A stretch of 64,000 nucleotides of DNA from an uncultured Verrucomicrobiae bacterium (GCA_963788655.1 CAWBHS010000038.1:96001-160000), one strand, 5' to 3'; counted from the stretch's first letter, positions 3,957 through 43,749 are shown. Made by a program: numbers and translations. Notes: generated by a model from the sequence alone, not told the origin.

Positions 3957-4562
3957 ATGAACTCAACCGATCCATTTGAAATGCTGGTGAGCGAGCACTA
4001 CGAGGCGCTTTACCGGTTTGCCCTCGGCCTGACGCGCGCGGAAGCGGACGCGCGGGACTTGACCCAACACACGCTCTACATCTGGGCGACGAAAGGTCAT
4101 CAACTGCGGGATCCTGCCAAAGTCAGGACGTGGTTGCACACAACTCTGCATCACGCTTTCCTCCGTGGTCGTCGCCGGCAGAGCCAATTTCCCCAGCAGG
4201 AATTGGATGGGGCCATCGAGCAACTGCCGGACGCCGCTCCGGTTCTGGCCGATCGATTGGATGCGTTGCAGGTGTTGCCGGCGCTCGCCCAGGTGGACGA
4301 GATCTATCAAGCGCCCGTAGCACTTTTCTACTTGGAAGACTACGCCTACGGAGACATCGCGGAGATTCTCGACGTGCCCGTCGGCACGGTCAAGTCGCGC
4401 ATCGCGCGCGGCATCGCCCAGCTTCGCGACATTCTGTTGTCGGACGATGCACGCGTTTCGACTCCGTTGAACTTGGATACGGAGAGTGGGGCTTTAGTGC
4501 CAGAGCCTTCGTGGAACAAGTTAACGCTTGAAGGATCACATTTGTGCCACGGTCGCGTTTGA
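3957..4562 (+). CDS. ECF RNA polymerase sigma-70 factor
   Basis: Region 2 (LYRFALGLTRAEADARDLTQ...WL) and region 4 (YGDIAEILDVPVGTVKSRIARG). Confidence 0.9.
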   Translation: MNSTDPFEMLVSEHYEALYRFALGLTRAEADARDLTQHTLYIWATKGHQLRDPAKVRTWLHTTLHHAFLRGRRRQSQFPQQELDGAIEQLPDAAPVLADRLDALQVLPALAQVDEIYQAPVALFYLEDYAYGDIAEILDVPVGTVKSRIARGIAQLRDILLSDDARVSTPLNLDTESGALVPEPSWNKLTLEGSHLCHGRV

Positions 4563-22091: not shown

Positions 22092-22310
22092 TGGCCGTTC
22101 GTGTCGTCCCGCTAGCTTGGCGCGCCGACATTTTGGTCGGCTCGAACGTTGGCGAGCAATTCGCGGTTTGGTACTGGCTTTCTAAATTGAAATCGCTGTG
22201 TCTGCGCAGGCTTGGGGCCGGGATCGACCTTCAACCCTGGATCAGCACTTCCAGCAGGTAACGCAATTCTTCCGGTACCTGCGCAGGACCGTTCACGGTC
22301 TGCGTTATCT

Positions 22311-22900
22311 CGGCCTTTGGTGTCGAGGAGGATGTTTTCCGGCTTGATGTCGCGGTGGAGGATGCCTTCGTCGTGGGCGAACTGAAGGGCTTCACAAATC
22401 TTCGGCACCAGCGCCAGCGCCTGGGCCGGCGTGAACCGTCCGGCGTGCATGGCTTGGCGCAGATTCACGCCGTCCACAAATTCCATTAACAGATAAAAGA
22501 ATCCGCCGGCCTGGCCGAAGTCGTGGACGGTCACAATGTTGGGATGGTTGAGCCGCGCCAGCACGCGGGCCTCGCGGGTGAACCGCTCGGCAAACGTGCG
22601 GTCCGCCGCGAGCGACGGTGACAGCAGTTTGAGCGCGACCAACCGATCCAACTTGGGTTGGCGGGCTTTGAACACCACGCCCATGCCGCCATGGCCGATG
22701 AGTTCCAGGATTTCGAACTGGGGAAAGGCCGCGGCGACTTGCTCCACGGTGGGAAGGTCCGGCGACGGAGCCGCAGGTTCCGTGTCGTTGGACGCCGCCA
22801 CCGCCGCCAGCAGGCATTTGGCGCACAGGCCCTGCGGCGCGTCGGCGGGCAACGGCGCCTGGCACTTGGGACAGCGATTCTGGATCATTTCAGTTTTCAT
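22311..22900 (-). pseudogene. Ser/Thr protein kinase, truncated after the catalytic loop
   Basis: Cys-pair N-terminus, IGHGGMGVV, VALK, HRDIKPEN; stops at DTKGR before the DFG motif. Confidence 0.85.
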
Positions 22901-22984
22901 ACCTGCCAATTTCCTGAGGAAAATCCCGTCGCAGGTTACCAAGAAATTTCAAAACAAGCTTCCGGATCGACAGTCCGCCGCCAG

Positions 22985-23166: not shown

Positions 23167-25701
23167 CTATTTCAACTTTCGATACAGGATCACGGTCGAG
23201 CCGGGCTGGGTTTTCAGCGTGACGGTCAAACCTTCCATCAGTTCCTGGCCCGTCATCGTCTTCGGCGCATCGGCATCGAGATCCGTGAGTTCATACTTGG
23301 CGGCCGGATCAAGACCCTTGAGGTGCAACCCCAACGTTGGCGAGCCGTTCTTTTCCCGACGAAAGGCCTGGACCACGCCTCCGTCCAATTCCGGCCGGTC
23401 GAACTGCCAGGCAATCCAGTCGCTAGGCTGAATGCTGTAGGGCGTGAGCGGATAATAATCGCCCAGCATGAACGGGGCGACTTTGCGGCATTCGTCGTAG
23501 GCGCGCCTGGTGTCCGCGTTGGAACCACCGTAGCCGCCACACGGCATGATGTAACTGCGCGCGCTGTAGCGATCGGTGAAGGCGCAGCCGGAACCGTAAT
23601 ACGGAATCCAACTTGAAATACCGTAGGTGTGGCCCTGGTTCGGCATCGTGGCTTGGTGGCCGAATTGGAAATCACTGCGCAGAAGCGGGACGGCACGCCG
23701 CAAGGTTTCCAAATCATTCCGGCGACCGCCGGACGAACACGAATCAATCAGCAGGCCGGGATGACGCCGGCGCAATTCGTCCCAAAAGGCGAGGTAACCC
23801 ATGACGTGTTTGATCTCGGTCATGCCGCGTCGGTTGACGGCATCGTGCCCGCGCCAATTGCCCAACGGTTCCATGTTGAAATCCTGGCGATAGTAATCAA
23901 TGCCTTGTTCGCGAAGCATCGTGTCGATGTGCTCGACCAACCATTTCTGCGCGTCCGGATTGCCCAGGTTCAATAGGTTGCCGCCGATGATCCAATCGGG
24001 ATGATGCTTGGCCAGCCAACTGTCCCGATCGCCGACGCGCTCCGGTTCGAACCACACGATAAACTTCTTGCCCTGCTGGTGAATCCAATCGCTGAACGGC
24101 CGAAAGCCTTGCGGGTAGCGTTCGCGATCAATCTCCCAGGTCCCGGTGTTCGGCCAACTCCCTTTGCACGGATACCACCCGGCATCACGCCAGCACAAAT
24201 CGAAGTCAATTCCCGCGCGGTTGAACTCTTTGACCGTGTCGAACAGATCCTGTTCGCCACCCTTCTCGAACGTTCGATAACACTGCATCTGCAACATCGT
24301 GGGCGGCACCTTGCCATCCAACCGCGGGCTGTTGTGCGCCAGAAACCACCGGCGCCACAAGTTCTGCGCCCGCACAACGTCGCTGCCCTCCCAAAACAGC
24401 AGGGCGATCAGTGGCGTGCGGATTTCCTCGCCGGGCTTCAGAACCAAGTGCGTCAGTTGCTGGCCGGCCACCGTTCGCAGGCTGCGTGATGGGTCGCGCC
24501 GGAAGGACGTTGCCCATTCCCCGGGCCAGCCCACGGCTAGAATCACTCCACCGCCCGGCATCTGGAGGTTGTAGTAAGGCCAGCCCTTCGGGCCATTGGT
24601 GGGACGGCCACCATCGGGGGCAAAGCGTTGGACGGCATTGGGACCGAGCGTGACTTGATACGGTTCATAACTCTGCGGCGCGCACCAATCGCCTTTGTTG
24701 CCGTGGAGTACAAATTCGCCATCCGCACTCCGTTCGAATCGGACGTCCAGCGCCTGGATGTTCTCCAGGATTGGCGTGTCCGCTTGGCCCGTGTTCTTGA
24801 GATAAACGGTCCATTCAACGGCGGGAAAATCCGTGTATTCCACCGCGACGCAGCGCACCTCCAGCCCGGTGCGGGGATCGGTCCAGGTGAACGTGCGTTG
24901 CGTGCGGACATCGTCGAGTTTTTGGGTGTTGGTTTTCATCGGCCACGTGGCCAGCAGGTCGTCGGAAGATTGGCCGCCATAGACGAACGAGATCGGCAAT
25001 TCGCTGGTACGTCGAATTGGTTCCTTGGCCGCATCCGCCCGGTGATCGCGCAGGGGCATGTCGCCCACCCACAGTTCGCGTCCGTCGGCCAACGTCACCT
25101 TGGTGTCGGCCCAATCGGATTGATCCCAGCCGATCCCGTCGCCCGCATCGCTGATTTCCAGCGTGAACGAATTCGCGCCGCCCAAATCCACATCGACATT
25201 GCGCGCGGGGGTACCGTAACGCATGACTTCTGACCGGAAGGCCACCTGATCTTTGACGGTGACCGAGAACACCACGCTGCCCTTGCCGTGGGCGGTGTCG
25301 TCATTGTGATCCAAACCGACGACGGACGTGAAGCGTTTGCCGGGACCGGGCAAATGCACGACGACTTTGCTCACCGCGTGGCAATACAAGCCACGGCTAT
25401 ATTCCTTGTCCCCGATCTTCAGCGGATACTCGCCCCGGGCATTCGGGATCACCGCATCGTTGTTGGCAAACACATCCAGCCCCGGCTCGGGCGGCGACGG
25501 CGCCACCGCCACAGGTTGCTTCGGTGGCGGCGTCAACTTGCACTCGAGCCAATGCTCCTTGAGCCAACGCTGCATCGTCTGAATTTCCGGTTCGGTGACT
25601 TTGATTTCGCGGGCTTGCGAGAGGTTGCCCGTCACCACCAATGCGCCCAGCAACAACACCACTTGCTGGATCACGAACCGAGACGAATGGGAAAGATTCA
25701 T
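23167..25701 (-). CDS. Alpha-galactosidase (GH36) with N-terminal NPCBM/NEW2 domain
   Basis: Signal peptide; NPCBM pattern (LKIGDKEYSRGL...GDGIGWDQSDWAD); GH36 motifs DAGWY, WFEPERV, YRQDFN, IDSCSSGGRRND. Confidence 0.88.
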   Translation of the reverse strand: MNLSHSSRFVIQQVVLLLGALVVTGNLSQAREIKVTEPEIQTMQRWLKEHWLECKLTPPPKQPVAVAPSPPEPGLDVFANNDAVIPNARGEYPLKIGDKEYSRGLYCHAVSKVVVHLPGPGKRFTSVVGLDHNDDTAHGKGSVVFSVTVKDQVAFRSEVMRYGTPARNVDVDLGGANSFTLEISDAGDGIGWDQSDWADTKVTLADGRELWVGDMPLRDHRADAAKEPIRRTSELPISFVYGGQSSDDLLATWPMKTNTQKLDDVRTQRTFTWTDPRTGLEVRCVAVEYTDFPAVEWTVYLKNTGQADTPILENIQALDVRFERSADGEFVLHGNKGDWCAPQSYEPYQVTLGPNAVQRFAPDGGRPTNGPKGWPYYNLQMPGGGVILAVGWPGEWATSFRRDPSRSLRTVAGQQLTHLVLKPGEEIRTPLIALLFWEGSDVVRAQNLWRRWFLAHNSPRLDGKVPPTMLQMQCYRTFEKGGEQDLFDTVKEFNRAGIDFDLCWRDAGWYPCKGSWPNTGTWEIDRERYPQGFRPFSDWIHQQGKKFIVWFEPERVGDRDSWLAKHHPDWIIGGNLLNLGNPDAQKWLVEHIDTMLREQGIDYYRQDFNMEPLGNWRGHDAVNRRGMTEIKHVMGYLAFWDELRRRHPGLLIDSCSSGGRRNDLETLRRAVPLLRSDFQFGHQATMPNQGHTYGISSWIPYYGSGCAFTDRYSARSYIMPCGGYGGSNADTRRAYDECRKVAPFMLGDYYPLTPYSIQPSDWIAWQFDRPELDGGVVQAFRREKNGSPTLGLHLKGLDPAAKYELTDLDADAPKTMTGQELMEGLTVTLKTQPGSTVILYRKLK

Positions 25702-25812
25702 ATCCGCGTTTTTCCACCGAACCCCCTTCGCCGTCAAGGCAATCCCAATCACCTCTCTGCCAGCCCCGTGCCGCCTGCGTAACGAAATGACGTGAGCGCC
25801 GTCTATAGAGGC

Positions 25813-26259
25813 ATGATGTTGTCCCGGAATCAACGGAGCCAAGCCGGTCTTACGTTGACCGAACTGCTATGCACGATGGCCATTATCATGGTGCTGGCGG
25901 GCTTGTTGCTGGGTCCCGCCAGTCGTGTGCTCCGGCGGGTGCGGGCGGACGAATGGGGTGAAAAATCGGCGACTCGCCTGCAAACCACCGTGGAACAACT
26001 CAAGCACCATTTCGAGGGCCAGCAGAATTTTCCGTTGGTCACCTTGAAGAAGATCGAAGCCAATCACTGGGTCAACGCATTGGAATTGGATTTTCTCAAG
26101 GACCGGCGCGTCACGTTTATCCCCTTCGCGGATTCCGATCCGGACGAGAAGACCGTCATCCAAGTCATCGTGGATCGCGGGTATTGGACGGAGGCCGGCC
26201 TGCGCCTCGTCGCGAAAGGAGACATCACCGGATGGCCGGAATCCAGCAATCCGGATTAG
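25813..26259 (+). CDS. Prepilin-type N-terminal cleavage/methylation domain protein
   Basis: AG-LTLTELLCTMAIIMVLAGLLL type IV pilin-like leader. Confidence 0.8.
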   Translation: MMLSRNQRSQAGLTLTELLCTMAIIMVLAGLLLGPASRVLRRVRADEWGEKSATRLQTTVEQLKHHFEGQQNFPLVTLKKIEANHWVNALELDFLKDRRVTFIPFADSDPDEKTVIQVIVDRGYWTEAGLRLVAKGDITGWPESSNPD

Positions 26260-26650: not shown

Positions 26651-27871
26651 GTTTCATTAAATACTTTACACATCACGAAGGCCCGAGATCGAACTTTTTC
26701 CAGCGATGCACCACCGGAGCCGCATTGATTTCCGCGATGCCGCGCAGAATTCTCTCCTTGAGTTCGGCCTTGGATTGCACCCGGATTTGCTTCAAGAACG
26801 TGTGCGCCATCTTGCCAAAGAGCGTTTCGACCAGATTGAGCCAGGAACCGTGCTTGGGCGTGTGAACATAACTGAAGCGGTTGGGTCGCGTTGCCAAGTA
26901 AGCGCGCGTCTCCTTGGAGATGTGAGCCGAGTGGTTATCCAGAATAATCCGTATCGTCACCCCAGCCGGATAATAGGCGTCCAGGTCTTTGAGCAGCGCG
27001 ACGAATTCCCGGCTGCGATGGCGCTCCTCGACCCGCGCCACAACGTGCCCGTCATGCAAATCCAGCGAGGCCAGGATCGAAAGGGTTCCGTGCCGTTTGT
27101 ATTCATGGTCGCGGCTGACGGTGGGGTGTTTCTCCGGCACGGGCGGCAAATCAGGCGCCGTATTGGCAAGGGCCTGCACTCCCGGCTTTTCATCAATGGA
27201 CACCGTGATGACGCTGGGCGCCACGCTCGCGGGTGCCGCCGCCGCTTGGTTCTGCACCGCCACCTCTTGGTAAACCATGAGCACTTCCTTCATCTTAAGC
27301 TCAAATTCCGGATCCCGTCGTTCCAGGTAATACTTCACTTTATGCGGTTGCAGGTGCTGCTCGTCCAGAATCCTTTGCACGGTGGCCTTGGCCGCCTGCG
27401 CCAGGCTGGGGTGGCCTGCGGCTTGCGCCTGCTGGCGCACATGAACCGCCAGCGATTGGCGCGTCCACAGTTCTGCTGCATAGCCAAGTTCCTTAGGCTT
27501 CGTGCAAGCCAAGTGGACCACCCAGACTTTGTCGGCGCTGGTAATAACCGGTTCCTTAGGACGATGAAAAGCGTCTTTGAGCCCGGCTTCGATTCCCATC
27601 TCCAGGGCCTTGTGCAGGCAGTGATAAATGGTGACTCGGCTGATCCCAAGGGCTCTTTGAATCGCCGAAGGGTTGTTGCCTGCGCGGTATTGCAAAAGAA
27701 TCCGCGCCCGTTCAACCTCACGCACCGGCGCGGCACGCGAAGCCTGCAGAGTTTCCAGTCGCTTTTCCTCCTCCGGGCTGAGGACCAAAGCTGGGAGCTT
27801 GGATTTTCCGGCCATGCCCCCGACGGTAGCAGGTCAGGCAGAGTCTGTAAACCTTTTAATGAAACGATGTA
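26651..27871 (-). mobile_element. IS630-family insertion sequence
   Basis: Intact transposase; imperfect terminal IRs GTTTCATTAAA...TTTACA (26651-26670) vs TGTAAA...TTTAATGAAAC (27846-27865); TA at right junction. Confidence 0.88.
26673..27815 (-). CDS. IS630-family transposase
   Basis: HTH N-terminus; DDE motifs SIDEKP, ILDNHSAH, SWLNLVE; HEYKRHGT. Confidence 0.95.
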   Translation of the reverse strand: MAGKSKLPALVLSPEEEKRLETLQASRAAPVREVERARILLQYRAGNNPSAIQRALGISRVTIYHCLHKALEMGIEAGLKDAFHRPKEPVITSADKVWVVHLACTKPKELGYAAELWTRQSLAVHVRQQAQAAGHPSLAQAAKATVQRILDEQHLQPHKVKYYLERRDPEFELKMKEVLMVYQEVAVQNQAAAAPASVAPSVITVSIDEKPGVQALANTAPDLPPVPEKHPTVSRDHEYKRHGTLSILASLDLHDGHVVARVEERHRSREFVALLKDLDAYYPAGVTIRIILDNHSAHISKETRAYLATRPNRFSYVHTPKHGSWLNLVETLFGKMAHTFLKQIRVQSKAELKERILRGIAEINAAPVVHRWKKFDLGPS

Positions 27872-28269
27872 TAGTGGTCCGGCCCAAAGCGCGCTCCGCT
27901 TCGGTGGAGTCGCTAATGTTCGCATTACAGAAAGGCATGTGCCGCGTGCTTGAACTCGACCCGTCCGATGTTGGCGTTTCACGCCGCTGGCTGAATCAAC
28001 GAACCGACCCAAGTGCCGGAGTTGAAATTATTCTTTATGACCGCACGCCCGGTGGCGCGGGGTTTGTCGAGGAAGGAAAAGATCGCTGGACCGCGGTTCT
28101 TGCCGCAGCGATTGATATTTGCCAGACCACGCCAAAGCACGTTTGCGAGATGGCATGCTACGATTGCTTGAAAGACTTCGGCAACCAGTCCTACCACGAC
28201 AAATTGGACCGGCAGTCGGTGTTGCGATTCTTTGGCGTTGGTTCCTGATCAGACGCGCTCTACACCTGA

Positions 28270-28945
28270 CGGCCGGATTTGGTCGGCTTCGTCAATAGTC
28301 TGCCGCTGGTGGTCATCGAGTTGAAGAAGCCCGGCGTGCCCGCGCGCGCGGCGTTCGACGAGAACCTGACGCCACTACAAGCAGCGAACTCTCGGCGTTG
28401 TTCTGGTTCAACGCGCTGCTCATCGCCTCGACCACGGACAGTCGCGTCGGCTCGCTCACGGCGGATTGGGAGCGGTTCTTCGGACCGACTGGAAACGCAT
28501 CGAGCGCGAGGACGAGCCGCACCGGGTGTCGATTGGAGGTGATGCATGCCGGGACGTCGATGGTGCCACATCCGGAAGGATCGCGCCTGCTCGACCTGGT
28601 GGAGAATTTCACGCTGTTCTCGGAGCACAAGCCGGGCTGGGTGAAAATCATCGGGCAGAATCACCAGTACCTTGGCGTGAACAACGCCATCGCCTCGGCG
28701 TGCTACAGGAAATGGTGAACGCCCGTCCGCATCACGGTCCGATTCCGCGAACCCAACGGCGTGGGTGTCTTCTGGCAATCCCAAGGTTCGGGGAAATCCT
28801 ATTTGATGGTGTTCTTCGCGCAGAAGGTGCTGCGCAAGGTGGCGGGCAACTGGACGTTTGTAGTCGTGAACGATCGCGTTGAGCTGGACGACCAGATCGC
28901 CATGACCTTCGAGGCGCTCACCGCGACGCTGAAGCGTGGACAGCG
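28270..28945 (+). pseudogene. hsdR: Type I restriction endonuclease R subunit internal fragment
   Basis: RPDLVGFVNSLPLVVIELK, LDLVENFTLF, HQYLGVNNAI, Walker A QGSGKS, VVVNDRVELDDQI spread over several frames; both ends missing. Confidence 0.85.
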
Positions 28946-28981: not shown

Positions 28982-29797
28982 TCAATGGGCCGGCGCCATC
29001 GTTTTGATCCACCACTGAATCAGCTCGATTTCGGCGCGCGTGGGCTGGGGCTTGCCTTCGGGGGGCATGTGGTCATCGTCGCTCAACGGGAGCAGCAAGC
29101 GTTGAATGATATGGCTGTCGCTGGCCTGGCCCGCCACAAAGATGGGGCCGCTGCTTCCTCCTTTCCCCACCGCCTCCCAACTATCCAGCCGCAGGCCGCT
29201 TTTGTGTTTCTCCGCGCCATGGCAGGCGGAGCACCGGTCCTTCAAGATGGGTTGCACCAGTTCGTTAAACACCTGCCGTGACATCGAGTCGGAATTGCCA
29301 GCTTCCGTGGTGGCCGGAAGAGTTTCGCCCCCAATCCATCGGCGCAACGGCGCGGGCGCAAAGCGGACAAGAAAGTCGCGACCGTGAGTAATCGAGCCGC
29401 CCAGGTGACTGGCCACCACCAGCAGACCCAGAGCCCCGGCCAGCGAGAGTTGGTAGGCCCGCGCTCGGTGGCCAAGGCTCAGCAGCCACGTGGTCGTGCA
29501 GACGCCGGCGAAGGCGAGGCCGGTCCACTTGTGCCAGCGCAAGAGTTCGGCATCGTAACCGCCCGATTGCGAGAGCAGCCAACCACCGGCCGCGGCAGTC
29601 AGGGAACTCAGCGCCACCACACCCAGGAGCAATTGCCGGTTCTGTGCCGCTCGTTGAAAATGTGAAAACCTCGCCAGCACTTCCAGCAGGCCCACCAGGA
29701 TCAGTCCACCAATTGGCAAATGGACCAACAACGGATGAAAGCGGCCGAGGAAGAGAATCAAATCATGGCCCGTTTCCGTCATAACGAATACCTGCAT
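28982..29797 (-). CDS. DUF2231-like membrane domain fused to Planctomycete-type cytochrome c
   Basis: GRFHPLLVHLPIG, ~4 TM helices with conserved His, HLGGSITHG; then VQPILKDRCSACHG...HMPPEGK...WWI. Possibly C-terminally clipped. Confidence 0.85.
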   Translation of the reverse strand: MQVFVMTETGHDLILFLGRFHPLLVHLPIGGLILVGLLEVLARFSHFQRAAQNRQLLLGVVALSSLTAAAGGWLLSQSGGYDAELLRWHKWTGLAFAGVCTTTWLLSLGHRARAYQLSLAGALGLLVVASHLGGSITHGRDFLVRFAPAPLRRWIGGETLPATTEAGNSDSMSRQVFNELVQPILKDRCSACHGAEKHKSGLRLDSWEAVGKGGSSGPIFVAGQASDSHIIQRLLLPLSDDDHMPPEGKPQPTRAEIELIQWWIKTMAPAH

Positions 29798-29810
29798 TCA
29801 ACGGCTTCCT

Positions 29811-32475
29811 CTATGGCCACGTCCAATTCAACGTCGCAAACACCGCGTGTGCGGTGTAATCGCGGAAACTGCCGCTGGTCGGCTCGCGGTAGTCGAAGTA
29901 GCCGTAACGCAATCCGACGGTGGCGTTCTGATTGAGCCGCCGGGTGAAGCCGGTCTGAAGGGTGTGCATCTCGAAATCAATGCCCACCGGCAAACCAGCA
30001 GCGATGTTATCCTGTCCGTAGGACGCCCGCGAAAAGGAATACGCGGCGGTCCAATCCGTCGTCCGGTTCAGTAAGAACGTGCCGCTGGCGATCACGCTGT
30101 AAACGTCGCCGCGGTATGGCACCACGGAAGGGAGTTCATTCTGGGCGGTGGCGGTGCGTGAATCACGGTAGGAAAACGTGGTGGAAAGGTAAAGCTGGCG
30201 CCAGGGGGTGAGGACGAAGTTCGCGCTATAGATGTTGGCGTCGTAATTGCCGGCGAAAACGGTCCCGCCCGGCGAGGCCAGTCCGCCAAACGCGCTGTCG
30301 GTGTCCGTATGATAATCGGAAGCCGAAAGCTGGTAACTCAGACTTGTTTTCAGCCAGCGGGCGGGGCGCAACACCAGCTTGGCTGCCACTTCGTCGGACT
30401 CGATTTGGCGGGAACGAATAAAGGCGGAGTAACCTTCGTTTGGTCCTTCGAAGGGTTGCCCCACAAAGGCCAGATCCCGGAGATGGTCGTAATCGCTGGC
30501 CTTGTTGCGATGACGATATTGCACGTTCAAAGAAACCCGCGCCCAGGGCGATACGGAGAAGCCGGCTCGGTAATCCTTCAAGTCGCCGGTGGCATCGGTA
30601 TCGCGCAGGAAATCATGATGGCCGCCTTGCTGTTGTTCGAACTGCCCGTAGCTTTCCTGCTGGAACCGCGTTTCCGCGAACAGGACGGTGAAGGGGATTC
30701 GCGTGTAGCGCAGCGCAAAGCGTTCATCGGACGCGAAGCGGTCCAGGTTTGCGCTTAGCAGGATGTTGTTCTCGGGAAAGCCGGTTGGCTGCTGTTCCTC
30801 GAGATTGGCGTGGCCCAGTCCTTCCTGGTGCATCCATTGATGCTGCAGGCTGGCGGTGAAGGCCAAACCTTTCCACGGCCCCAGCATCGCATTGTAGTTG
30901 AAGACGTGCGTTTGCTGCTCCAACACAATGGCGTTGGCGGTCCAAAAACTGTCATCGGACGAAAAGCCCGTGGTGGCCGTGGGGGTGAGCAAAGTGGTCA
31001 CATTCAGCGTCGGCGGTGCCGTCAAGCCGGCTGTAAAGGTAGCCGCCGGAAAGCAGCAGCCAGTTCTTTACTTGTTTCTCCAACCGGAACGTATTGGCCG
31101 CTTGGAAATGATCATACCCGTCTTGGGCCAATAGGTAGCGGTCAAGATTCCCGTCGTCGGTGTTATAGAACGCCGTGTTGTTCCGTCGCGTTTTTACGTC
31201 GTAGAACTCGACGCGAAAGTTGTCTTCCAAACTGATCCCCTTAAGGTCATGGCTCACGTCCAACTTCAGAATGTGATTTCGCTCCTCCATGTCCTTCGCG
31301 GCGGGATAGATGTTCTTCACGTCGGTTCCGAAAACATGCGCTGGGATGGTCCCCACCGGCCCCCACTGCAACGTGGACTTGGTGCCATCTTTATACTGGT
31401 ATTCGTAACCCAACACCACCCGTGGCCAGTGCGGCAAGGTCAGCCCAACGTCCGCCCAGGCGCGACCGATGTCCAGGCCCGGCGCGCGGTCCAGCGTGAA
31501 GGCTGAGGGAACAAGCAACGGATCATAGCCGCCGGTATCGTCGAAATACTTCCGATACTGAGTGAAACCAAAACGTACGAAGCCGAGTTCGGACTTCTTA
31601 ATGTCGAGCCTCAGCTTGTAGTCATCGCGCAAGGCGTGACCATCGAGGCGCACGTTGACGCCGTTGGTGAAGTGTTGCTGGAACTGAAACGCTTCCGCCC
31701 CACCGTTCCAACCGCGCGGCACCCAGTGATGCTCCTCGAACGCCTGGGCATTGCCATGAACTCCGATCCAACCCGCCGTGGGTTTGATCGACAACACCGC
31801 CTGGGTCATCTCGCCGCCTGTTTCCCAGGGCACCCCTTGATCAATCCAGGCGCGGAGCAAACCGATCTGCTCTGGAGTCAATGGGGCGCCCTTACCCGGC
31901 GGCGGCATTTCCATGTCCTCCACCAACCGACTCACGTAATGAATGAGCGGGCTCTTCGCGCTGTCACCGGGAAGGATGTCCACACCGTTGGCGCCGCCTT
32001 TCAAGGCGGCCGCGCGCGTCGCCAGGCTGAAGTGGCTCTTGGGTCGCTCGGGGCCGTGACAGCGGAAACAGGTGCTCTCGAAAATCGGTTTGATGTCGCG
32101 GGCAAAGTCCACCTGGAGCTTGGCCGGCGGCGGCAGTTTCGCAATGTCCACCGGTTCAGCCGCCCATGTGGACGACACGCTGGCCATCGCCACGAAAGCT
32201 TGAAGCCAGAAGCCCGCCAACAGTCCAGCAGGACAGGCGTCCCGCCTGTCTCGATCACAAAACAACCTAGGACTTGCGATGGGGAGCCAATATTTTGTCA
32301 GGAGCACCAAAAGCTGAAGAAAGCCCTCGGCTATTCGAGGCAGGCGAGACGCCTGTCCCACCAGCTCGTAGCAGCCGACGTGAGGAGGCTCAAATTTCTT
32401 GCGAAGACGAAATTGCTCCAAGTAGAAATGAGCCTCCCCACGTCGGCTACTACGAGGTTTCAGGCAAGTTTTCAT
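29811..32475 (-). CDS. Outer-membrane beta-barrel (MtrB/PioB-like porin) with N-terminal Planctomycete-type cytochrome c domain (frameshift near 31010)
   Basis: VDFARDIKPIFESTCFRCHG...MPP...WIDQG heme domain, then ~680 aa of alternating aromatic/hydrophobic beta-strands ending HAVFATLNWTWP; starts 3 bp after a multiheme cytochrome gene. Confidence 0.75.
32228..32456. repeat. Two REP-like inverted-repeat pairs inside the 5' end of the porin ORF
   Basis: GCAGGACAGGCGTCCCGCCTGTC (32228) / GGCAGGCGAGACGCCTGTCCCAC (to 32361), same family as 14281; CTCGTAGCAGCCGACGTGAGGAGGCTCA (32365-32392) / inverse 32429-32456. Confidence 0.85.
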
Positions 32476-32478
32476 CGG

Positions 32479-33339
32479 TCAATACTGCATCTGCGGATTG
32501 ACGTTTGAGCCGTGAACGGCCGTGTGGCATCCGGCCGACCAGCATGTCCCTTGCCCCAGCATCTCGTGGTGCGGGACCTTGCCGATGAACAACTCCAGAC
32601 CGGCCGGCGCGCCGGTTCCTTGCACTTGCGCGTGACACTTCAAGCACAGGTTGTTGTCGCGCTCGACCAGCAGCTTCGCGTTGATCGAGCCGTGCGGTTG
32701 GTGGCAGACGACGCAGCCTTCGCGCAGGGCCTCGTGTTCGAACATGAACGGATGGGCTTGCTCGCGATGGCATTCGGCGCAGGTTTCGTTGCGCCGCGCC
32801 ATGGCCAATCCGCGCGCCGGCTTCATGAGGTCCAGCCCGTGCGGATCATGGCATTGCACGCAATTCATTTGGCCCTCCAGCACGGGATGGTGTTGCGGCA
32901 GGTTGAACTCGGCCTGGATTTCCAGATGGCAGTTGAAACAGGTGGCGGGATCGTTGCCTGGATTGACGATGAACCGTCCGCGCCCCCCTCCCGCGGCGAC
33001 GTGTTTGCTGCCTGGCCCGTGGCACGCTTCGCAACCCGAATTGCCAACGAGTTTCGCCGTCTCCACGTGGACGCGGCCGTGCGGGCTGAATGGGAAAACC
33101 CGTACAATGTTGGTGTGGCAATCGTAACAGACCTGGTTGCCGACCAAAGTGGCACCTTCAATCTCTGGCGGGGCGAGCACGGTGCGTTGCAGACTGGAAC
33201 ACGAAACCACCAGTGCGATCAAGCCCGCCCCGCTGGCCAACGGCAGAGCCCAACGACGCCTGTGAACGATGACGCGCCTGATGGTCCTGTGACATCTCCA
33301 GCTAAACGTGCAAGAGAATCTCTGAATGGCGCGCAACAT
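32479..33339 (-). CDS. Multiheme c-type cytochrome, DmsE/MtrA-like, probable lipoprotein (8 heme motifs)
   Basis: CYDCH, CEACH, CFNCH, CVQCH, CAECH, CVVCH, CLKCH plus CWSAGCH; GPGSKH, HDPHG, PFMFEH, HQPHGS, VHGSN motifs; LIALVVSC lipobox. Confidence 0.9.
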   Translation of the reverse strand: MLRAIQRFSCTFSWRCHRTIRRVIVHRRRWALPLASGAGLIALVVSCSSLQRTVLAPPEIEGATLVGNQVCYDCHTNIVRVFPFSPHGRVHVETAKLVGNSGCEACHGPGSKHVAAGGGRGRFIVNPGNDPATCFNCHLEIQAEFNLPQHHPVLEGQMNCVQCHDPHGLDLMKPARGLAMARRNETCAECHREQAHPFMFEHEALREGCVVCHQPHGSINAKLLVERDNNLCLKCHAQVQGTGAPAGLELFIGKVPHHEMLGQGTCWSAGCHTAVHGSNVNPQMQY

Positions 33340-33418
33340 GCCTGGGGGCAACTTGAGATTGGGGCAAATCCCGCCCGGCGTGGAGAAGATCACGCCGGGC
33401 GATTGAATGAACGGCGGA

Positions 33419-36400
33419 TTACCGCGTGACTTGGCCGCGGATTTCGCCACTGGGATGGTTGGGCGTATGGAAGTTCAGATACGTGGCGCCGTCGATGACG
33501 CTGAGCAAATTGCTCGTGACCAAGGAAACTGTTCCCGCCAGTCGTCCCGAGGCGTCGTACGCGCCCCCGTTGTATGGCGCAAGGTTCACTAGAATATCCG
33601 CCGTGGAGAAGGCGGAGGCGGTTGGACCGTGAATGTGGGAAGCAACGGCGGGTGCCGAAAGTCCCCGGTACGTGACGTTCAAGCCGAGTTGATTGCCCAC
33701 CAGCGTGAACGTGCCGGAACCGGTTCCATCGGACGCCACCGCATCGGGCCGTTCGTTCACCCCGCTGAGCGCCGCGCTCATGAGCACCGGCGCCAGTTGA
33801 CCGCGAATTTCGCCGCCGGTGTGCGCGCTCGTGTGAATGTTCACATAGCTCAGTCCGTTCAGGATCATCGCTTGTTGATCGGGGGTGAGATGGGCCGTGC
33901 CCGAAAAGGTGCCGCTGGTACCAAAGGAGCCGCCGTTATAGGGCAACAGGCTGACTTGTATGCCCGCCGGTTCGGCAGTGGTTGCCGGACCGTGAATGTG
34001 GGCCGCAATGGCCGCGGTGGAGAGATTGCTATAGACGAGATTGAACGTGAGCCAATCGCCTTCGAGACTGAAGATGCCGGTGCCGGAACCTGGCGTGGCC
34101 GCCGGATCGAGCCCGGCCGCTTCCCCGCTCAACATTACGGTCAACGGCACGGCGGTGGCTTGCGGGAGAATCTGGCCACGGATTTCGCCGCCCGAATGGG
34201 CCGCGGTGTGAACGTTCACATAAGTGCGACCGTCAATGACCGCCTTCAATTGATCCAGCGTGAGCGTGACCGTGCCGGAGAATGAACCGTCGCTGCCAAA
34301 AGGTCCGTCGCTGAAAGGCGCAAGACTCACCAGCACGCCGGCGTTTTCGGTGGCAGACGCCGGACCATGAATGTGCGCCAACACGGCGGCACCGGACAAT
34401 CCGCGGTAGGTAATGTTAAAGCTGAGCTGAGTGCCTACCAGCGCGAAGGTGCCCGAACCATGGCCTGCCGTCGTCACCGGATCCGGGGTGACGTTGGCCC
34501 CGTTGAGCGCGGCCTGCATCAACACCGGCGCAATCTGACCGCGGATTTCACCACCGGGATGGCTCGGAGTGTGGACGTTTACATAAGTCTGTCCCGCCAG
34601 GATCATGGCCTTTTGGGCGTCAGTTAAAACGACGGTGCCGGACAGCGTGCCCTCGGTGTCGAAGGCGCCGCCGTTGAAGGGAATCAGGCTGATCAAGATT
34701 CCGGCGATATTGGTCGTAGCCGCCGGACCGTGAATGTGCGCCGCCGTCGCCACGCCGCTCAAGCCGTGATACTCGAGGTCGAACCGCAGCGTGTTTCCGT
34801 CGAGACTCAAAGTTCCCGTGCCGCCCGCGTTGGGATTGCCCGGCGATGGTTCCAAGGCGCCGCTCATATAGACGGTGAGCGGAATGGGCGGTTGATGAGC
34901 CGTGTCCGCCACGCGGAAGATGCCAGCGTGGCCCGCCAACGGCGCATCGGCTTCGCTCTCATCAGTGAAGTCCGCGTTCATCCATGTGGGGTCCGTGACG
35001 GCATTCTTTTTCTGAAGTGCGAATGGTCCGGTGCCCCCGTTCAAGTAGGCGGCGAAGTTCGTTCCCCCTTCGTTTTCAACCAGGGTGACTTCGAGGGGCG
35101 GAGGAACCGGTACAATTTTGAGCATGATGCCGGTGTTTCCCGCCGGCCCCAGCATGCGGCTGCCGAAGACATAGAGTTCACCATCGGCGTTTTGGCCGAA
35201 ACCCCGGACCCAGCGACCCAGTGGACGATCTTCTCGGCCAATCTGGAATTCTTTGATGGTGGCATCGGTGTCCAAATAAAAGAGCCGGCCTGAGGGCGCG
35301 CCAAACGATCCCCAGTCCGCAAACACGTAGCGTCCTTCGAGCGTGGGCAGTTGCGCGCCGCGATAAACGTAACCGCTAATCACAACGGCGCCCTCGTCGT
35401 GGTCGTATTCAGCGATGGGATCAATCAAGTCCGGCGGCACCGGGCGCACGGGCAGGGTCACGACTTGGCCGAAATTCGGATCGTCCGCCAACTGAATCGA
35501 ACCAAAAGCTCCCTTCCTTGACGTTCCAACCGTAGTTGCCACCCTTCACGATAACGTCCACTTCTTCGATATTGTTTTGGCCGGCATCGGCGAGATAAAG
35601 CGCTCCGGTCAGCCGATCAAAGGTGAAGCTGAACGGATTGCGCAAGCCATAGGCATAGATTTCATCCAAGCCATCACCGCCCACGAACGGATTATCTGCC
35701 GGAATGCCGTATTGCGCGTTGGCCGAATTGCGCCCATCGATGTCCAGGCGAATAACTTTGCCCAGGATGCGGTTGATGTCTTGCGCATTGCCGCCGGGCA
35801 CATGGCCATCGGCCACATCGTTGGCTTGGCCGCCGTCGCCCAAAGTAATGTAGAGCAATCCATCCGGACCGAAGTGCATGGCGCCCGCGTTGTGGTTGGA
35901 CTGGGGTTCGTCGATGCGCAGGATTTCCCGGCGGCTGGCGACATCGATTTGGTTGGAATTGGCGGCATCGATATGCCATTCGGCGATGACCGATTGATGG
36001 TTGTTGGTGGCACCTTCCGGCATCACGGTGGGAAAATCAGCCGGGCCGGCGGTCGGTTCGGACGTGTAGGTGTAAACCAGTGGGTTGTCTGCAAAATCAG
36101 GATGGACAGCAACCCCGAGCAATCCGCGTTCGTCATAAACCCCTTGGGTCACCAACCGGGTATGCACGTCCAGCATGGGCGCATCGAGCTTGCCGGCGTT
36201 CGAAACCACCCAAATCTGGCCGGCCTGATCATACACCAACAGGCGTCCGCTCCCGTCGTCAGGCACCGCCATGCCCAACGGCGCGGCCAGGCCATCGACA
36301 ACGGTCTGAAATTCGATCACCTGGTCGCCTTTGGGAATGCTCTCAGGAATAGGTTCCGCAATCAGCACGCTGTTCACAGTGATCGTGACTTCTGCGGAAG

Positions 36401-37269
36401 TGGTGCTGGCGCCCTGGTCATCAGTGGCCACCGCCGTGAGCGGGTGGCTGCCGGGGTAGAAGGTGATGGTCATTTGGTAGGGAAATGTGGCAATTACCCC
36501 AAGCGAGTTCGTTCCATCGAAGAATTCGACCTGAGTCACGGAGCCGTCGGTATCATTTGCGGCTGCTTGAATCGTTATTGTTGCGTCCGCGGTGAACGTA
36601 GCGCCATTGGCGGGATCCGTGATGGCTACAGTGGGCGGTTGGTTGGCCGCAGTGACGGTAACGTTCACCGCCGCCGAGGTGGTGATCAGGCCGCCGTTGT
36701 CAGTGGCACGGGCCGTCAGCGTGTAGTTGCCGGCGGGCAGATTGTTCGCCGTGACACCAAAGGGAGCGGTGGGGTCCGAACCCACTGAGGTATTGTTGAC
36801 AAAGAACTCTACATTCATCACCGTCCCGTCGCTGTCACTGGCATCAGCTTGCACTGCAAAGGTGGCCGGGGCACTGAAGCTGGTGCCATTGGCCGGATTG
36901 GTCACGGTGACCGAGGGGGGCGTGTTGGCCACGCTCTGCACCAGCACGGCACCATGCATAAATGGATGCGGACTGCAATGATAGTTGAACGTGCCGGGCG
37001 CATTGAACGTATGACTATACGTAGCCGGCCCCGTGGTCATGAGCAGGGGACTGTTCAACGTGGTGTCGGGCGAATCACTGGTGACGGTGTGCGCCGTCCC
37101 GGCGTCCATCATCGTCCAGACGACAGTGTCGCCGGCGTTCACGGTGACGCTGTCCGGGTGGAAGGCAAAGCCTTGGATACTCACGTTCATGGTGGCCGCC
37201 GAAAGACTCAAGGGACCGCGAAGCCAACAGCCAGAGCCAGAACCAACCTAATTTCGAATACTGTTTCAT
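33419..37269 (-). CDS. Secreted multidomain protein: cupredoxin + 2 Ig-like + PQQ-dependent glucose/sorbosone dehydrogenase + 4 CHRD (frameshifts near 37213 and 35490)
   Basis: Signal MKQYSKLGWFWLWLL; HTVT...YHCSPHPFM type-1 Cu site; two PPSVTVTNPANG/PPTVAITDPANG Ig repeats; ERGLLGVAVHPDF, NHNAG, FGPDGLLYITLGDGG, YAYGLRNP; four AHIHGP...YVNVHT...GEIRGQ repeats. Confidence 0.85.
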
Positions 37270-37771
37270 GTTGCTAATTTCCTTTCATGTTTGAGAGGTA
37301 TTGAAGACGGCGGTTGAATGAAAACCTCGGCCCGCACCGCCGGAGGCGGATCCGACAAGACGGCACAATCCGGATGGGGACGGCAAACGCCTTGCTGCCC
37401 CACCGGGCGATCCGGAGCCACCTTCGGCGACGTGGTCTATCCGAACCGACACTCAGGTGCCAATTGTTCATACTTATGGGATGCATGAGATACCGTGTTG
37501 GTTCCCGGCGAACGAAATTTCTTCTGGCCTTCGATGACTGCAGGGTGTACGGGACCATATTTGGACGCAATTGCCGAGGCCTCGCGGTTCTGCCTCAAGG
37601 ATGCGCACTGCTTTGGAGCGAGCAGGGATGGTCTTGTCCGTTTGCGATGATGCCAAGTGGGATGGCGGGCAGACAACAGTGTCTCCGCTCCGATTGACGA
37701 ATTCGAGACCACTGCGCGCTGCACTTGGAAACGGTGCAGTCGCCTGCTTGGGTGACAAAGGCTTGTGACGC

Positions 37772-39289: not shown

Positions 39290-40253
39290 ATGCCGGAGAA
39301 TCTCCCCGCACCCGCAGTCAAAAGCGATCCCGCTCGGGGTGGGTGTTTTGCGTTCTCCTGTTCTTCTTTGCCTATCTGCACCAGCACGACGGTTGGAACC
39401 AGAACTCGCGGCTCGATCTGCTGCACTCCATTTGGACGCATCACACGTTCAACATTGACGCCTATCACTTCAACACCGGCGACAAGTCGGTGTACGACGG
39501 ACACTATTATTCTGACAAGGCGCCCGGAATTGTATTGCTGGCGCTGCCGGCCTTCATGCTTTCGGCGCTGATGCTGAAGTTCACCGGCATGTCACTCGAT
39601 GCCGCCGGCGGATGGGAGTTTGCCGACTGGTTCGCCACGGTGGGTTCGGTCGGCTGGGTGACCGCCCTTGGGGGAATGGTGTTTTATCGGATGCTGCGAA
39701 ACTGGATGGCTGCACGGCTGGCGCTTTTTGGAGGCCGTTCTACTTGCTGATACTGCCGGCTATTTTCTTTTTGTGGAAGGCCCACCGGAAGCTCCTAGCA
39801 GTCGTTGGCTTGGTCAGCGTCCTCCAAGTCGTGGCGATTGCGGGTTATTACATGCCGGACGGCGGGGCGGCGCTGGGGCCGCGATTGTTGGCGCCGATGA
39901 TTCCTTTCATTGGCTTGGCGGCGGCGGCTGGTTTCAAGATCGTTCCCCGGATTGGATCAATTTTGGGAATCGTGTCCGTGGTGATGATGGGGGTCGCGAC
40001 CTTCATCAACAGCATGCCACCGCAGGGCATGAGCAATTTGTTGCATGGCTACTACCTTCCCCGGCTAACGCAATTTCGGTTTCAATGGACGTGGTTGGGG
40101 CAGTTCGGATTGGGTGGTGTGTGGCCTCTGCTGCCTCTCGCGGGCGTAATGCTTTACCTGATGTGGGAGCTTTCCTCGCTGTTCTGGAAACGACGCCGTG
40201 AATGGGTGCTGGAGGATGATCCGGTCAAACAGCGCCGCCGGCCCATCAATTGA
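39290..40253 (+). pseudogene. Polytopic membrane protein (GT-C-like), apparently internally deleted/frameshifted
   Basis: WNQNSRLDL...NTGDKSVYDGHYYSDKAPG luminal loop; abrupt join near 39730 to a C-terminal part with GGAALGPRLLAP. Confidence 0.55.
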
Positions 40254-41122: not shown

Positions 41123-41387
41123 AGCTCGTTGTTGGCCATCGAGCCAACTTCCAATTAGACCTTTTGGCAGACCAACGAGTTGAATGGCTGAATTCGGCAG
41201 AAAGACCGTTGGTCCTGTTTTGTTGGGCAGTGGCTCCGAATCCATAACCTCCGTATCAAAAGCAATACTCATCCGGAAGTCAATGCTTAACTTGCGCCTG
41301 ATCAGGCCTCTGTTTCCGGTTGTCGTTGGGTCGGACCGGTGAAAATTCAGTTTGCCTTTTGACCGACATTACCTATTTGTATTCGTC

Positions 41388-42431
41388 ATGAATACTCTTC
41401 GATTGGGTGGACGGCTGGTATGGTTGTTCGTTTTTGTCTCGTTGACTGGCGCTACGGCACGGGCGCACACGGCTGCGGAAGAAATGGTCGAAGCTGCCAG
41501 TCACTGGCTGGCCGCGCTGGCACCCGCGCAACGGGCGCAAGCCACCTTTGACTTGGCGGACGCGGAACGGACCAACTGGCACTACGTTCCCCGAGCGCGG
41601 AAGGGGCTACCGTTCAAGGAAATGACCCCGGCGCAGCACAAGCTCGCCCATGCCTTGCTCAGCACCGGCTTGAGTCAACGTGGCTATGTGAAGGCGGTGA
41701 CGATCATGAGCCTCGAACAGGTGCTCCGCGACTTGGAATCCGGCCGTGGTCCGCTGCGGGATGCCGATGGATATTTCGTTTCCATCTTTGGCACACCGGG
41801 GCCCAAGGGCACTTGGGGGTGGCGCGTCGAAGGCCACCATCTTTCACTCAACTTCACCATTGTGGACGGGCAGGACATCGCCGCGACGCCCTCGTTTTTT
41901 GGCTCCAATCCCGCCGAGGTGAAAACCGGTCCCCGCCAGGGACTGCGCGTGTTGGCCAATGAAGAAGATCTGGGCCGTCAATTGGTCAAATCACTCGACG
42001 CCAAGCAGCGCACGACGGCCATCCTCACGAACGCGGCGTTCAAAGACATCCTCACGGGCGATGCCCGGAAGATCAAGCCGCTCGAACCGGCCGGACTGTT
42101 GGCGGCCAATATGTCGCCCGAACAGCAGGCCGTGCTGCACCGGGTGGTGGAAGAATACGTTCGGCGGCATCGCCCCGAAATCGCCGACCATGATTTGGAG
42201 AAAATCGAAAAAGCCGGCTGGGAGCGGATTGGGTTCGTCTGGGCCGGTGGCCTCGATCGCGGGCAAGCTCATTACTACCGGGTGCAAGGCCCTACGTTTG
42301 TCCTGGAATACGACAATACGCAGGACAACGCCAATCACATCCATTCGGTCTGGCGCGATTTCGAGAACGATTTTGGCGAAGATTTGTTGCGCCGGCATTA
42401 CGAGGAAACACCGCACGGGAAGCAGAAGTAG
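41388..42431 (+). CDS. DUF3500-domain exported protein
   Basis: ERTNWHYVP, WGWRVEGHHLSLNF, HYYRVQGPTFVLEYDNTQDNANHIHSVWRD. Confidence 0.92.
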   Translation: MNTLRLGGRLVWLFVFVSLTGATARAHTAAEEMVEAASHWLAALAPAQRAQATFDLADAERTNWHYVPRARKGLPFKEMTPAQHKLAHALLSTGLSQRGYVKAVTIMSLEQVLRDLESGRGPLRDADGYFVSIFGTPGPKGTWGWRVEGHHLSLNFTIVDGQDIAATPSFFGSNPAEVKTGPRQGLRVLANEEDLGRQLVKSLDAKQRTTAILTNAAFKDILTGDARKIKPLEPAGLLAANMSPEQQAVLHRVVEEYVRRHRPEIADHDLEKIEKAGWERIGFVWAGGLDRGQAHYYRVQGPTFVLEYDNTQDNANHIHSVWRDFENDFGEDLLRRHYEETPHGKQK

Positions 42432-42590
42432 AATCCGAAAATCAAAGGCCGAAATCCGAAATCCGGTTGCCGAAAGCAGCTCCCGTTTTGAGCGATTGCT
42501 GGAGGAACCTCCGCCGGAACGAAGCACTTCGGATTTCGGCGCTCCTTTTTCGTTCTTTTCGGCCTGCTCGTCACCAGTTATACCATGGTG

Positions 42591-43749
42591 ATGTCTGACG
42601 TTGTCACCAAACCAACTGCAATGGCCGTCGGCCAGCGCCACATTGCCACCATCCAGGACATGGCTTTCGGGGGTGAAGGCGTGGCGCGGGTGGATGATTT
42701 TGTGGTGTTTGTGCCGTTCGTGATTCCCGGCGAAGAGGTCGAGTTGGAAATTGTGGAAGTCAAAAAGCAGTTCGCTCGGGCCCGGTTGGTGGAAGTGCGC
42801 CGCCGGTCGTCCCGGCGTGTGGCGCCCCGGTGCCCGTACTTTGGCCGGTGTGGCGGATGCCAATACCAGCACTTGGATTATGCTCGGCAATTGGAGGTCA
42901 AACAAAAGCAAATCGCGGATCTTTTTGAACGGGTGGGGAAATTTCCTGCGGGCGTGGTCAGTCCCGTGGTTCCCTGTCCGCAACCTTACGGTTATCGGAA
43001 CCGGATCATGATTCGCAGCCAATGGAACAAGCCCGAGCAACGATTGAACATCGGCTTCTTACGCGGAGATTGCGGATTGGTGGAAGACCTTGAGGCGTGC
43101 GCCATTGCCGAACCGGCGCTCAATGAGCAGATCCGGCATGTCCGGGCGCATCCGCCGCCCAAGGGAGGCATCAAAGTGGTGTTGCGGGTGGCCCCGGAAG
43201 GCTGGGAGGTGCCGCCGGACTCGTTTTTCCAAAATAATTTCTTCCTCTTGCCCAAATTGGTGGAGGCGGCCCGCGACAGTTTGCGCGACGCCGGTACGCG
43301 CTACCTGGTGGACACGTATTGCGGGGTGGGCTTTTTCGCGCTCGAGCTGGCGGACGCCGTCGAGCGCTACGTGGGCATCGAGTACCGACCAGATGGCCAT
43401 CAAAGCCGCGCGGCAGAACGCCCCATTGCGACAACGGGCCAACGGCGAATTTCTGTCGGGCCGGACGGAGGATTTGTTGCCCAAAGTGATTGGCCGTCTT
43501 TCACCCGGCGCCACGACGGTTCTGCTCGATCCGCCGCGCAAAGGGTGCAGTCACGCCAGCCTGCAACTTTTGCGCGACCTGCGGCCTGCCCAGGTGATTC
43601 ATGTATCCTGTCATCCGGCCACTTTGGCGCGAGACTTGAACATTTTGTGCGCCGAGGGTGTCTTTGAATTACGGAAACTGGTTCCTTTGGATATGTTCCC
43701 GCAAACGCAGCACGTGGAATGCGTGGCGGACTTGAGACTGGGAAGTTGA
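42591..43749 (+). CDS. TRAM-domain 23S rRNA (uracil-5-)-methyltransferase, RlmD/TrmA family (frameshift near 43385)
   Basis: TRAM N-terminus, CPYFGRCGGCQYQH Fe-S motif, SFFQNN, DTYCGVG, LDPPRKG, VSCHPATLARD, DMFPQTQHVE. Confidence 0.9.

Follow-up and report, generated by a model that had tools for sequence, protein, structure and literature searches.

The closest described relatives of the locus studied here are the porin-cytochrome conduits MtrAB(C) of Shewanella (6R2Q), MtoAB of Sideroxydans and PioAB of Rhodopseudomonas, in which a cytochrome gene is followed by a barrel gene. We found the same order in a cluster of four genes, A to D, at positions 28982-37269 of a 64,000-nucleotide stretch of DNA from an uncultured Verrucomicrobiae bacterium (GCA_963788655.1, CAWBHS010000038.1:96001-160000; hereafter the window), where gene B encodes an octaheme cytochrome and gene C a predicted barrel with a heme domain of its own. 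Like MtoAB and PioAB, the window conduit has no outer multiheme cytochrome; the outer-surface multiheme cytochrome of MtrCAB is absent from the window cluster and present in one of 96 related loci. In Verrucomicrobia, He et al. (2017, PMC5615132) described, in the available part of the paper, clusters in which a porin of at least 20 strands adjoins an 8-heme cytochrome, and the window, placed in the same phylum also by named full-length homologs of gene A and by barrel clusters, shows this pattern, with its strands counted on a model. The likeness is by description, and the loci in that part of the paper could be of the window's type (type 1 below) or of a heme-less type. A Limisphaera porin with one N-terminal heme motif (2026, PMC13608581, available in part) resembles gene C in layout. 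The core pair is already known from these two sources as far as they are available; what the window adds is the GSDH-CHRD family of gene A and the DUF2231-cytochrome of gene D as optional members of the same predicted module. Our preferred reading, which we hold at even chances, is that B and C form an MtrAB-like heme wire carrying electrons inward, and that A and D are optional, co-regulated accessories and not fixed subunits.

All four genes are co-oriented on the minus strand, with gaps of 79 bp between A and B, 3 bp between B and C, and 13 bp between C and D; the 3-bp gap is uncertain, as the start of gene C lies in a repeat. An earlier reading of this DNA, made without database searches (hereafter the sequence-only reading), had proposed four tightly spaced genes with ten heme-c motifs and one type-1 copper site, and gene calls and Pfam matches confirmed the genes, the domains as named and both counts. 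Three frameshifts interrupt the cluster, two in gene A and one in gene C. In the source genome (assembly of 8.96 Mb, 86% complete), 41 of 240 conserved genes are frameshifted, a rate of 0.19 per kb at which about 1.6 frameshifts are expected over 8.3 kb, against the three observed (Poisson P about 0.2, computed by hand). Because this genome-wide rate fits and the orthologs of gene A in relatives are free of frameshifts, assembly error is the likelier cause, and given the same rate a pseudogene reading is not favoured.

Gene B (32479-33339, minus strand) encodes an MtrA/DmsE-like lipoprotein with seven CXXCH motifs, one CX4CH motif and a lipobox-like Cys at 33201. None of the eight heme motifs varies among 81 aligned octaheme rows, and the octaheme profile matches MtrA of 6R2Q (6r2q_A) with an E value of 2.3e-34; by these alignments gene B is homologous to MtrA. 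It differs from MtrA in having eight hemes instead of ten, a final CX4CH and a lipobox. The MtrA/DmsE likeness drawn in the sequence-only reading holds as far as homology to 6r2q_A goes, but not as family membership, as gene B reaches 154 bits against TIGR03508 (decaheme DmsE/MtrA), below the cut-off of 192.2, and has eight motifs in place of ten.

Gene C (29811-32475, minus strand) fuses a PSCyt1 monoheme domain (E 1e-14), which contains its one CXXCH motif (at 32070), to a predicted 26-strand outer-membrane barrel, and is frameshifted near 31030. In the barrel-fused heme domain, the CXXCH motif and a Met are invariant. Beyond PSCyt1, about 660 residues have no family match: no Pfam or NCBIfam barrel family matched, PF11854 (MtrB_PioB) failed to match either half of gene C (E<=0.01) or three intact orthologs (E<=1e-4), and a 93-sequence barrel profile found no MtrB at E<=1. 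PF11854 was present on 10% of the members of one Atlas look-alike cluster of the barrel. The MtrB_PioB match, one of the checks suggested in the sequence-only reading, was therefore not obtained, and the fold was assessed on a model. An AlphaFold2 model of the intact ortholog from genome G028 (about 50% identical, 93-row alignment) reached a predicted local distance difference test (pLDDT) score of 92.7 and shows a heme domain made of helices and, by DSSP count, 26 long strands. Its top Foldseek match is MtrB (6r2q_B, E 8e-14, template modelling scores 0.57/0.66), followed by a match at 8e-10. Thus, the protein encoded at 29.8-32.5 kb models, through this ortholog, as the barrel that had been proposed; compared with MtrB, it has the same fold by model, no sequence match and an extra fused PSCyt1 heme domain. 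The true start of gene C is uncertain because the first ~85 codons of its open reading frame (ORF) coincide with dispersed genomic repeats (32225-32460, no strand assigned), which have up to ~180 overlapping blastn matches in the source genome. These repeats are palindrome-like and in frame with the barrel ORF, and peptide traces similar to them are found at the start of some barrel orthologs, for example at locus L146.

Of 61 genomes of the order, 51 matched the C-terminal half of the barrel, and at E<=1e-115 the N-terminal half, including the heme domain, was matched in 103 of 400 others; judged by such matches, the pair is common across this order of Verrucomicrobiota. We read the flanks of 96 type-1 conduit loci (36 from 60 relatives and the 60 best further matches); the genomes compared are kin, and the locus counts are not independent. 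An octaheme gene lies within two genes upstream of the heme-fused barrel in 88 of the 96 loci, and in 78 of the 82 that have at least 2.5 kb of upstream sequence, while another multiheme gene is nearby in one; none encoding an outer-surface cytochrome lies in the window cluster. Two paralogous conduit types could be distinguished, namely type 1, the window's, with an octaheme cytochrome and a PSCyt1-fused barrel, and type 2, with a 9-heme cytochrome, an octaheme cytochrome and a heme-less barrel. The homology to MtrA, the 26-strand model and MtrB as the best fold match support the porin-cytochrome pair of the sequence-only reading as a module of MtrAB-like build. A second conduit in the source genome, of type 2, is found on contig C12 (L050:5542-10911), where an Rrf2 regulator, a 9-heme cytochrome, an octaheme cytochrome, a heme-less barrel and a monoheme cytochrome are clustered, with 3-6-heme genes close by.

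Gene A (33419-37269, minus strand) runs from an ATG at 37269 to a stop at 33419, with ~1283 codons spread over three frames by frameshifts near 37220, just past the signal peptide, and near 35500. The signal peptide is followed by a cupredoxin domain (~37190-36936; Copper-bind, E 3e-10), two Big_7 domains, a six-blade GSDH propeller (~36290-35100; E 1e-40), a linker domain of ~70 residues and four CHRD domains (~34885-33422; E 1.5e-89). Orthologs in relatives are intact and 1180-1400 residues long. The cupredoxin is the only PF00127 domain of the source genome (40.7 bits, cut-off 21.2) and has the type-1 copper ligand set His...Cys-His-Met, Met included; the ligands His, Cys and His are invariant in 58 aligned cupredoxin rows (two ligand-less copies excluded). 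The six-blade GSDH propeller is shared with soluble glucose dehydrogenase (sGDH) of Acinetobacter (1C9U), YliI of E. coli (2G8S) and 3A9G of Pyrobaculum, but unlike these soluble pyrroloquinoline quinone (PQQ) dehydrogenases, that of gene A is fused to cupredoxin, Ig and CHRD domains.

The equivalents of sGDH His144, Asp163, Arg228, Asn229, Glu253 and Tyr263, which we take to comprise the catalytic His and PQQ/Ca-site residues, are kept in 24 of 24 gene A-family orthologs, and that of Arg408 in 19 of 24. Changes relative to sGDH are Gln231 to Phe, Pro248 to Gln, and Arg406, the first Arg of the C-terminal R-x-R, to Trp. Most of the presumed PQQ/Ca-site residues are kept, which may fit the dehydrogenase of the sequence-only reading. 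TIGR03606 gave 79.7 bits for the window fragment and 76.8 bits for an intact ortholog, both under its cut-off of 434.55, and the best PDB sequence match of the propeller is the non-enzymic propeller of HHIP. For CHRD, a sequence search gave no solved relative. Neither pqqC nor pqqE was found over cut-off in the 86%-complete source genome, where the pqqC control itself matched nowhere, and PQQ would therefore need to be scavenged. A chimeric origin of gene A, from a conduit-type cupredoxin-Ig gene and a GSDH-CHRD gene, is suggestive only: the five best matches of the first Ig domain are conduit-linked, the fourteen best of the second are GSDH-CHRD proteins, the cupredoxin is ambiguous, and the tree bearing on the question has no starred support.

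The four-gene unit is not conserved, and strict synteny was rejected. Strong matches to the GSDH-CHRD gene occur in 30 of 400 other genomes; 22 of these also have a barrel or barrel-part match, in no case on the same contig among the matches listed (most assemblies are fragmented). No octaheme or barrel gene was seen in the flanks of 27 GSDH-CHRD orthologs, 21 of which had at least 3.5 kb downstream, and no GSDH-CHRD gene in the 96 conduit loci, so the synteny expected elsewhere by the sequence-only reading is lacking. In one conduit locus, a GSDH-cytochrome gene of another kind occurs two genes upstream, and four loci have CHRD matches without GSDH. Among 80 further GSDH/CHRD loci across phyla, some from genomes already counted, there was no barrel or DUF2231 match. 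Nearest to the window is locus L180 of genome G136, in which genes for cupredoxin-Ig-CHRD, DUF2231-PSCyt1, octaheme and barrel proteins, with no GSDH, lie within ~9 kb. The proposed replacement of MtrC by a dehydrogenase-cupredoxin is likewise not conserved, and the recurring element is the cupredoxin-Ig module. A Chloroflexota locus (L255) has a GSDH-CHRD gene and, 2.3 kb away beyond an unrelated gene, genes for 8-heme and 14-heme cytochromes and a membrane protein.

A secreted cupredoxin gene, mostly of cupredoxin-Big_7 type, is present in 36 of the 96 conduit loci (within two genes downstream in 30 and upstream in 5), and a DUF2231-PSCyt1 gene in 3 of 96; hence both kinds of protein that the sequence-only reading placed beside the conduit recur in relatives. 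CusF-SCO genes lie within two genes upstream in 6 of 96 loci, and genes for Rieske proteins with a twin-arginine translocation (Tat) signal downstream in 5 of 96. These window-type partners (cupredoxin, CusF-SCO, Rieske or DUF2231 proteins) set the conduit apart from MtrAB, MtoAB and PioAB. On the FastTree barrel tree, the cupredoxin label changes 19 times, with 10 changes forced by starred branches, and much of its pattern may reflect one old arrangement (barrel, cupredoxin, Ham1 gene) that was lost many times. Of the 56 cupredoxin domains found in 60 relatives, 17 are no more than 5 kb away from a type-1 barrel (hand count; the profile was built partly from these loci). Non-redox neighbours are also found: 17 of the 96 loci have CBM96-type secreted proteins, and 9 have members of an unnamed domain-Big_7 family. 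This family (L176, L184, L187, L189, L191, L197, L200, L201 and L203) has an N-terminal domain without a family match in the one member scanned, usually joined to Big_7, and some members have a predicted ECF promoter (see below). At L152 (genome G263), oxidase-like, Rieske and cytochrome b-like genes precede the conduit and a cupredoxin gene follows it, with ECF sites ahead of both the octaheme and the cupredoxin genes.

Gene D (28982-29797, minus strand) combines a DUF2231 four-helix domain, probably in the membrane, with a PSCyt1 monoheme domain. The DUF2231 match scores 23.1 bits, below the cut-off of 26.4, and PSCyt1 also matched. Its model has four long helices in a bundle and a cytochrome c domain, two segments reach a hydropathy of 1.6, and fold searches gave generic four-helix-bundle matches only. 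His15, His20 and His83 are invariant among homologs, and His125 and His132 are at least 90% conserved. We rejected the view that gene D is a truncated remnant; its length is no defect because short forms of 258-350 residues are common among homologs. Membrane proteins with conserved His were proposed as the inner link of the porin-cytochrome clusters PCC3 and PCC4 (PMC5566968, available in part); as described there, they have five helices and HX13H, in contrast to the four helices and other His spacing of gene D, to which they are likened by description. Heme b and quinone activity of gene D would be a guess from this likeness. D-like genes are found at type-1 conduits in genomes G085 (the same place as in the window), G136 and G194. 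The copy in G360 sits at a type-2 conduit, and that of G146, the tree sister of window gene D (100/94), has a 9-heme gene nearby. The conduit-linked copies did not group into one dedicated clade; most homologs lie away from conduits, often in DUF1501-type clusters, and in the 18 genomes of the first 60 relatives that have both gene D and the barrel, the two are adjacent in none (hand comparison). In G146 (L232), this nearest relative has a 9-heme cytochrome gene on one side and, on the other, two genes that contain a cupredoxin, in one case fused to TIGR03118.

One family of extracytoplasmic function (ECF) sigma and anti-sigma factors occurs in 28 of 96 conduit loci and 12 of 27 GSDH-CHRD loci, and 20 conduit loci have both this family and a cupredoxin. 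About 47 bp upstream of these sigma genes we found a bipartite motif, GGGAAC(A/C), ~15 bases, (G/C)CTCnTA. A position weight matrix trained on 27 such sites upstream of ECF genes in relatives, with a count threshold of 17 bits, detected 93 sites, 67 of them not used in training, in 5.0 Mb of loci versus 10 in 17.9 Mb of the source genome (both strands). With training sites excluded, sites of at least 17 bits precede 8 of 25 GSDH-CHRD genes, 9 of 40 cupredoxin genes and 4 of 88 octaheme genes, as compared to 1 of 448 unlabelled ORFs as a control; the predicted promoter is also found ahead of CBM96, CusF-SCO, Rieske and unnamed secreted protein genes. These counts support a predicted ECF promoter shared between the gene A family and conduit-linked genes. 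In the window, a candidate site (37476-37507, minus strand) lies 238 bp before gene A; it has a good -35 box and a weak -10 box, scores 15.5 bits, below the threshold, and is one of 31 sites of at least 15 bits in the source genome. A scan for sigma-70 promoters and terminators gave nothing exceeding shuffled sequences. The source genome has four paralogs of the ECF sigma, one with a site 47 bp upstream that is outside the training set. An ECF sigma gene of the conduit-neighbour family is located at 3957-4562 (plus strand) of the window, 33 kb from the cluster; it is 59% identical to the copy in genome G005 and has no anti-sigma match beside it.

The composition of the cluster, the homology of gene B to MtrA, the barrel model and the neighbourhood counts are results of the analysis itself, and the preferred reading builds on them as follows. 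The octaheme lipoprotein would sit inside the 26-strand barrel, and the N-terminal His/Met heme domain of the barrel, on the periplasmic face, would be a built-in acceptor in the role played elsewhere by MtoD or PioC. From the fused heme, electrons would pass to the His/Met heme of gene D or to a cupredoxin and on to a heme-copper oxidase, for which subunit I matches are present in the source genome. A single ECF sigma would activate the conduit genes along with those for secreted copper and carbohydrate-module proteins. The usual stand-alone cupredoxin-Ig partner would here be part of the GSDH-CHRD protein; using scavenged PQQ, the propeller of this protein would oxidise aldoses and reduce gene A's own copper site, and its electrons might then enter the wire. 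We favour inward flow because there is no outer multiheme cytochrome, the monohemes on the periplasmic side are His/Met, the partners are copper and Rieske proteins, and the genome has heme-copper oxidases and a separate type-2 conduit available for reduction.

Several points weigh against this reading. Its direction is inferred only by analogy and from redox potentials, for which class values were used, and the kinship of the genomes bears on every count. None of the four partner types is found in the flanks of 55 of 96 loci (some contigs are short), and the C-terminal domain of 23 of 40 partner cupredoxins also occurs on other secreted proteins, which may place these cupredoxins outside the cell and not in the periplasm. 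The promoter directly precedes just 10 of 88 octaheme genes, the window site is weak, and the regulon also takes in non-redox CBM96 and Ig proteins. A loose promoter pattern gave 1-9 sites in five whole genomes versus 6-11 in reversed controls; therefore, any regulon is small. Searches of the source genome gave neither pqqC nor pqqE over cut-off. Finally, Limisphaera isolates, which hold the porin with one N-terminal heme motif, reduce ferrihydrite, and this fits outward flow (PMC13608581, available part).

It is possible, though doubtful, that the conduit works outward, from quinol through gene D or another membrane cytochrome, the fused heme and the octaheme protein to Fe(III), humic quinones or surface blue-copper proteins. 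A surface type-1 copper site would be a downhill acceptor by typical potentials, and the shared C-terminal domain that 23 of 40 partner cupredoxins carry might serve as an export tag; by the same potentials, however, a His/Met heme ahead of a bis-His wire would be uphill. No outer multiheme cytochrome is found in 95 of 96 loci, and the second conduit of the source genome, with its 9-heme partner (L050), suits the job better. In the available parts of the sources, transfer to humic substances was proposed by He et al. for Verrucomicrobia clusters of porin and 8-heme cytochrome (PMC5615132), and Limisphaera reduces ferric citrate as well as ferrihydrite (PMC13608581). Quite improbable, in our view, is shared regulation without shared electrons, in which an envelope, copper or redox-stress ECF regulon brings secreted proteins together beside the conduit, and A and D arrived there recently and locally, with no redox tie to it. 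The same flanking slots hold the non-redox CBM96-type (17/96) and unnamed domain-Big_7 (9/96) families, the conduit-linked D copies are not one clade, an IS630 transposase adjoins the cluster, and neither a barrel nor a CHRD match was obtained in the single genome of the same genus that was searched (93% complete). Against this, the commonest conduit neighbours are redox or copper proteins, and the 58 aligned cupredoxin rows all keep the copper ligands His, Cys and His.

The sequence-only reading had proposed a dedicated four-part machine, in which a PQQ dehydrogenase-cupredoxin replaces MtrC and sugar electrons pass through the wire to gene D, and we consider this rather unlikely. The tight co-orientation of the four genes, the PQQ-site motifs in 24 of 24 orthologs, the shared ECF promoter and the G136 locus (L180), with its cupredoxin-Ig-CHRD, DUF2231-PSCyt1, octaheme and barrel genes within ~9 kb, speak for it, as does G085, where D directly follows the barrel and the GSDH-CHRD gene is elsewhere. 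The flanks of the 27 GSDH-CHRD orthologs (0/27 with octaheme or barrel, 21 of them with at least 3.5 kb downstream) speak against it, and so do the 22 genomes with both genes, in which the barrel is never on the same contig among the matches listed. Moreover, the gene occurs in 30 of 400 other genomes compared with 103 for the barrel (strict cut-offs), a cupredoxin is present in just 13 of 27 orthologs, neither pqqC nor pqqE came up above cut-off in the 86%-complete genome, and the proposed order from copper to the heme wire is probably uphill by typical potentials. Unlikely too, we think, is a surface respiratory module, operated by Verrucomicrobia of this order under one ECF sigma and leading from a secreted PQQ dehydrogenase-cupredoxin through the heme-fused wire to the DUF2231 cytochrome, with the window holding the regulon in one operon; sugars or polysaccharide ends would then be oxidised outside the cell, and the DUF2231 cytochrome would be the inner-membrane link.

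The partners have few parallels in the sources consulted. In the available text of PMC5615132, the words cupredoxin, plastocyanin and copper have 0 occurrences, as has cupredoxin in that of PMC13608581, and neither available text mentions a GSDH-CHRD or DUF2231 partner or ECF control. In the literature searched (titles and abstract starts, with subscription journals largely outside), cupredoxin, GSDH-CHRD and DUF2231 partners and the ECF link were not described, and no biochemical study of the heme-fused porin-cytochrome type was found. In Sideroxydans, according to the available part of a preprint, predicted extracellular cupredoxins and SCO1 (Slit_1812-1818) were expressed with MtoAB on magnetite (10.1101/2024.09.20.614158); these cupredoxins form their own cluster and two are of multicopper-oxidase type, unlike the cupredoxin partners described here.

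The cluster borders mobile DNA, with an IS630-type transposase at 26676-27815 (minus strand). Directly after gene D, at ~28260-28900 (plus strand), lies a candidate broken type I restriction fragment; its ORF gave no Pfam match when scanned and presumably resembles an HsdR fragment by its motif. Also near the cluster are an NPCBM and GH36-like alpha-galactosidase gene (23167-25842, minus strand) and a DUF3500 gene (41352-42431, plus strand). Further window genes appear frameshifted, namely a Ser/Thr kinase (22112-22942), a membrane protein (39343-40253) and a TRAM-domain methyltransferase (42585-43749), which match the assembly indel rate.

The partners and the predicted promoter make the direction and the trigger of the conduit testable in cultured Limisphaera or Pedosphaera, if these are carriers. 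If the dehydrogenase does feed the wire, extracellular carbohydrate oxidation would be coupled directly to respiration, a sugar-fed use of porin-cytochrome conduits of which we found no description in the literature searched. The association would also provide an initial clue to the function of DUF2231 and of bacterial CHRD repeats, and the cell may take up electrons from reactions at its surface.

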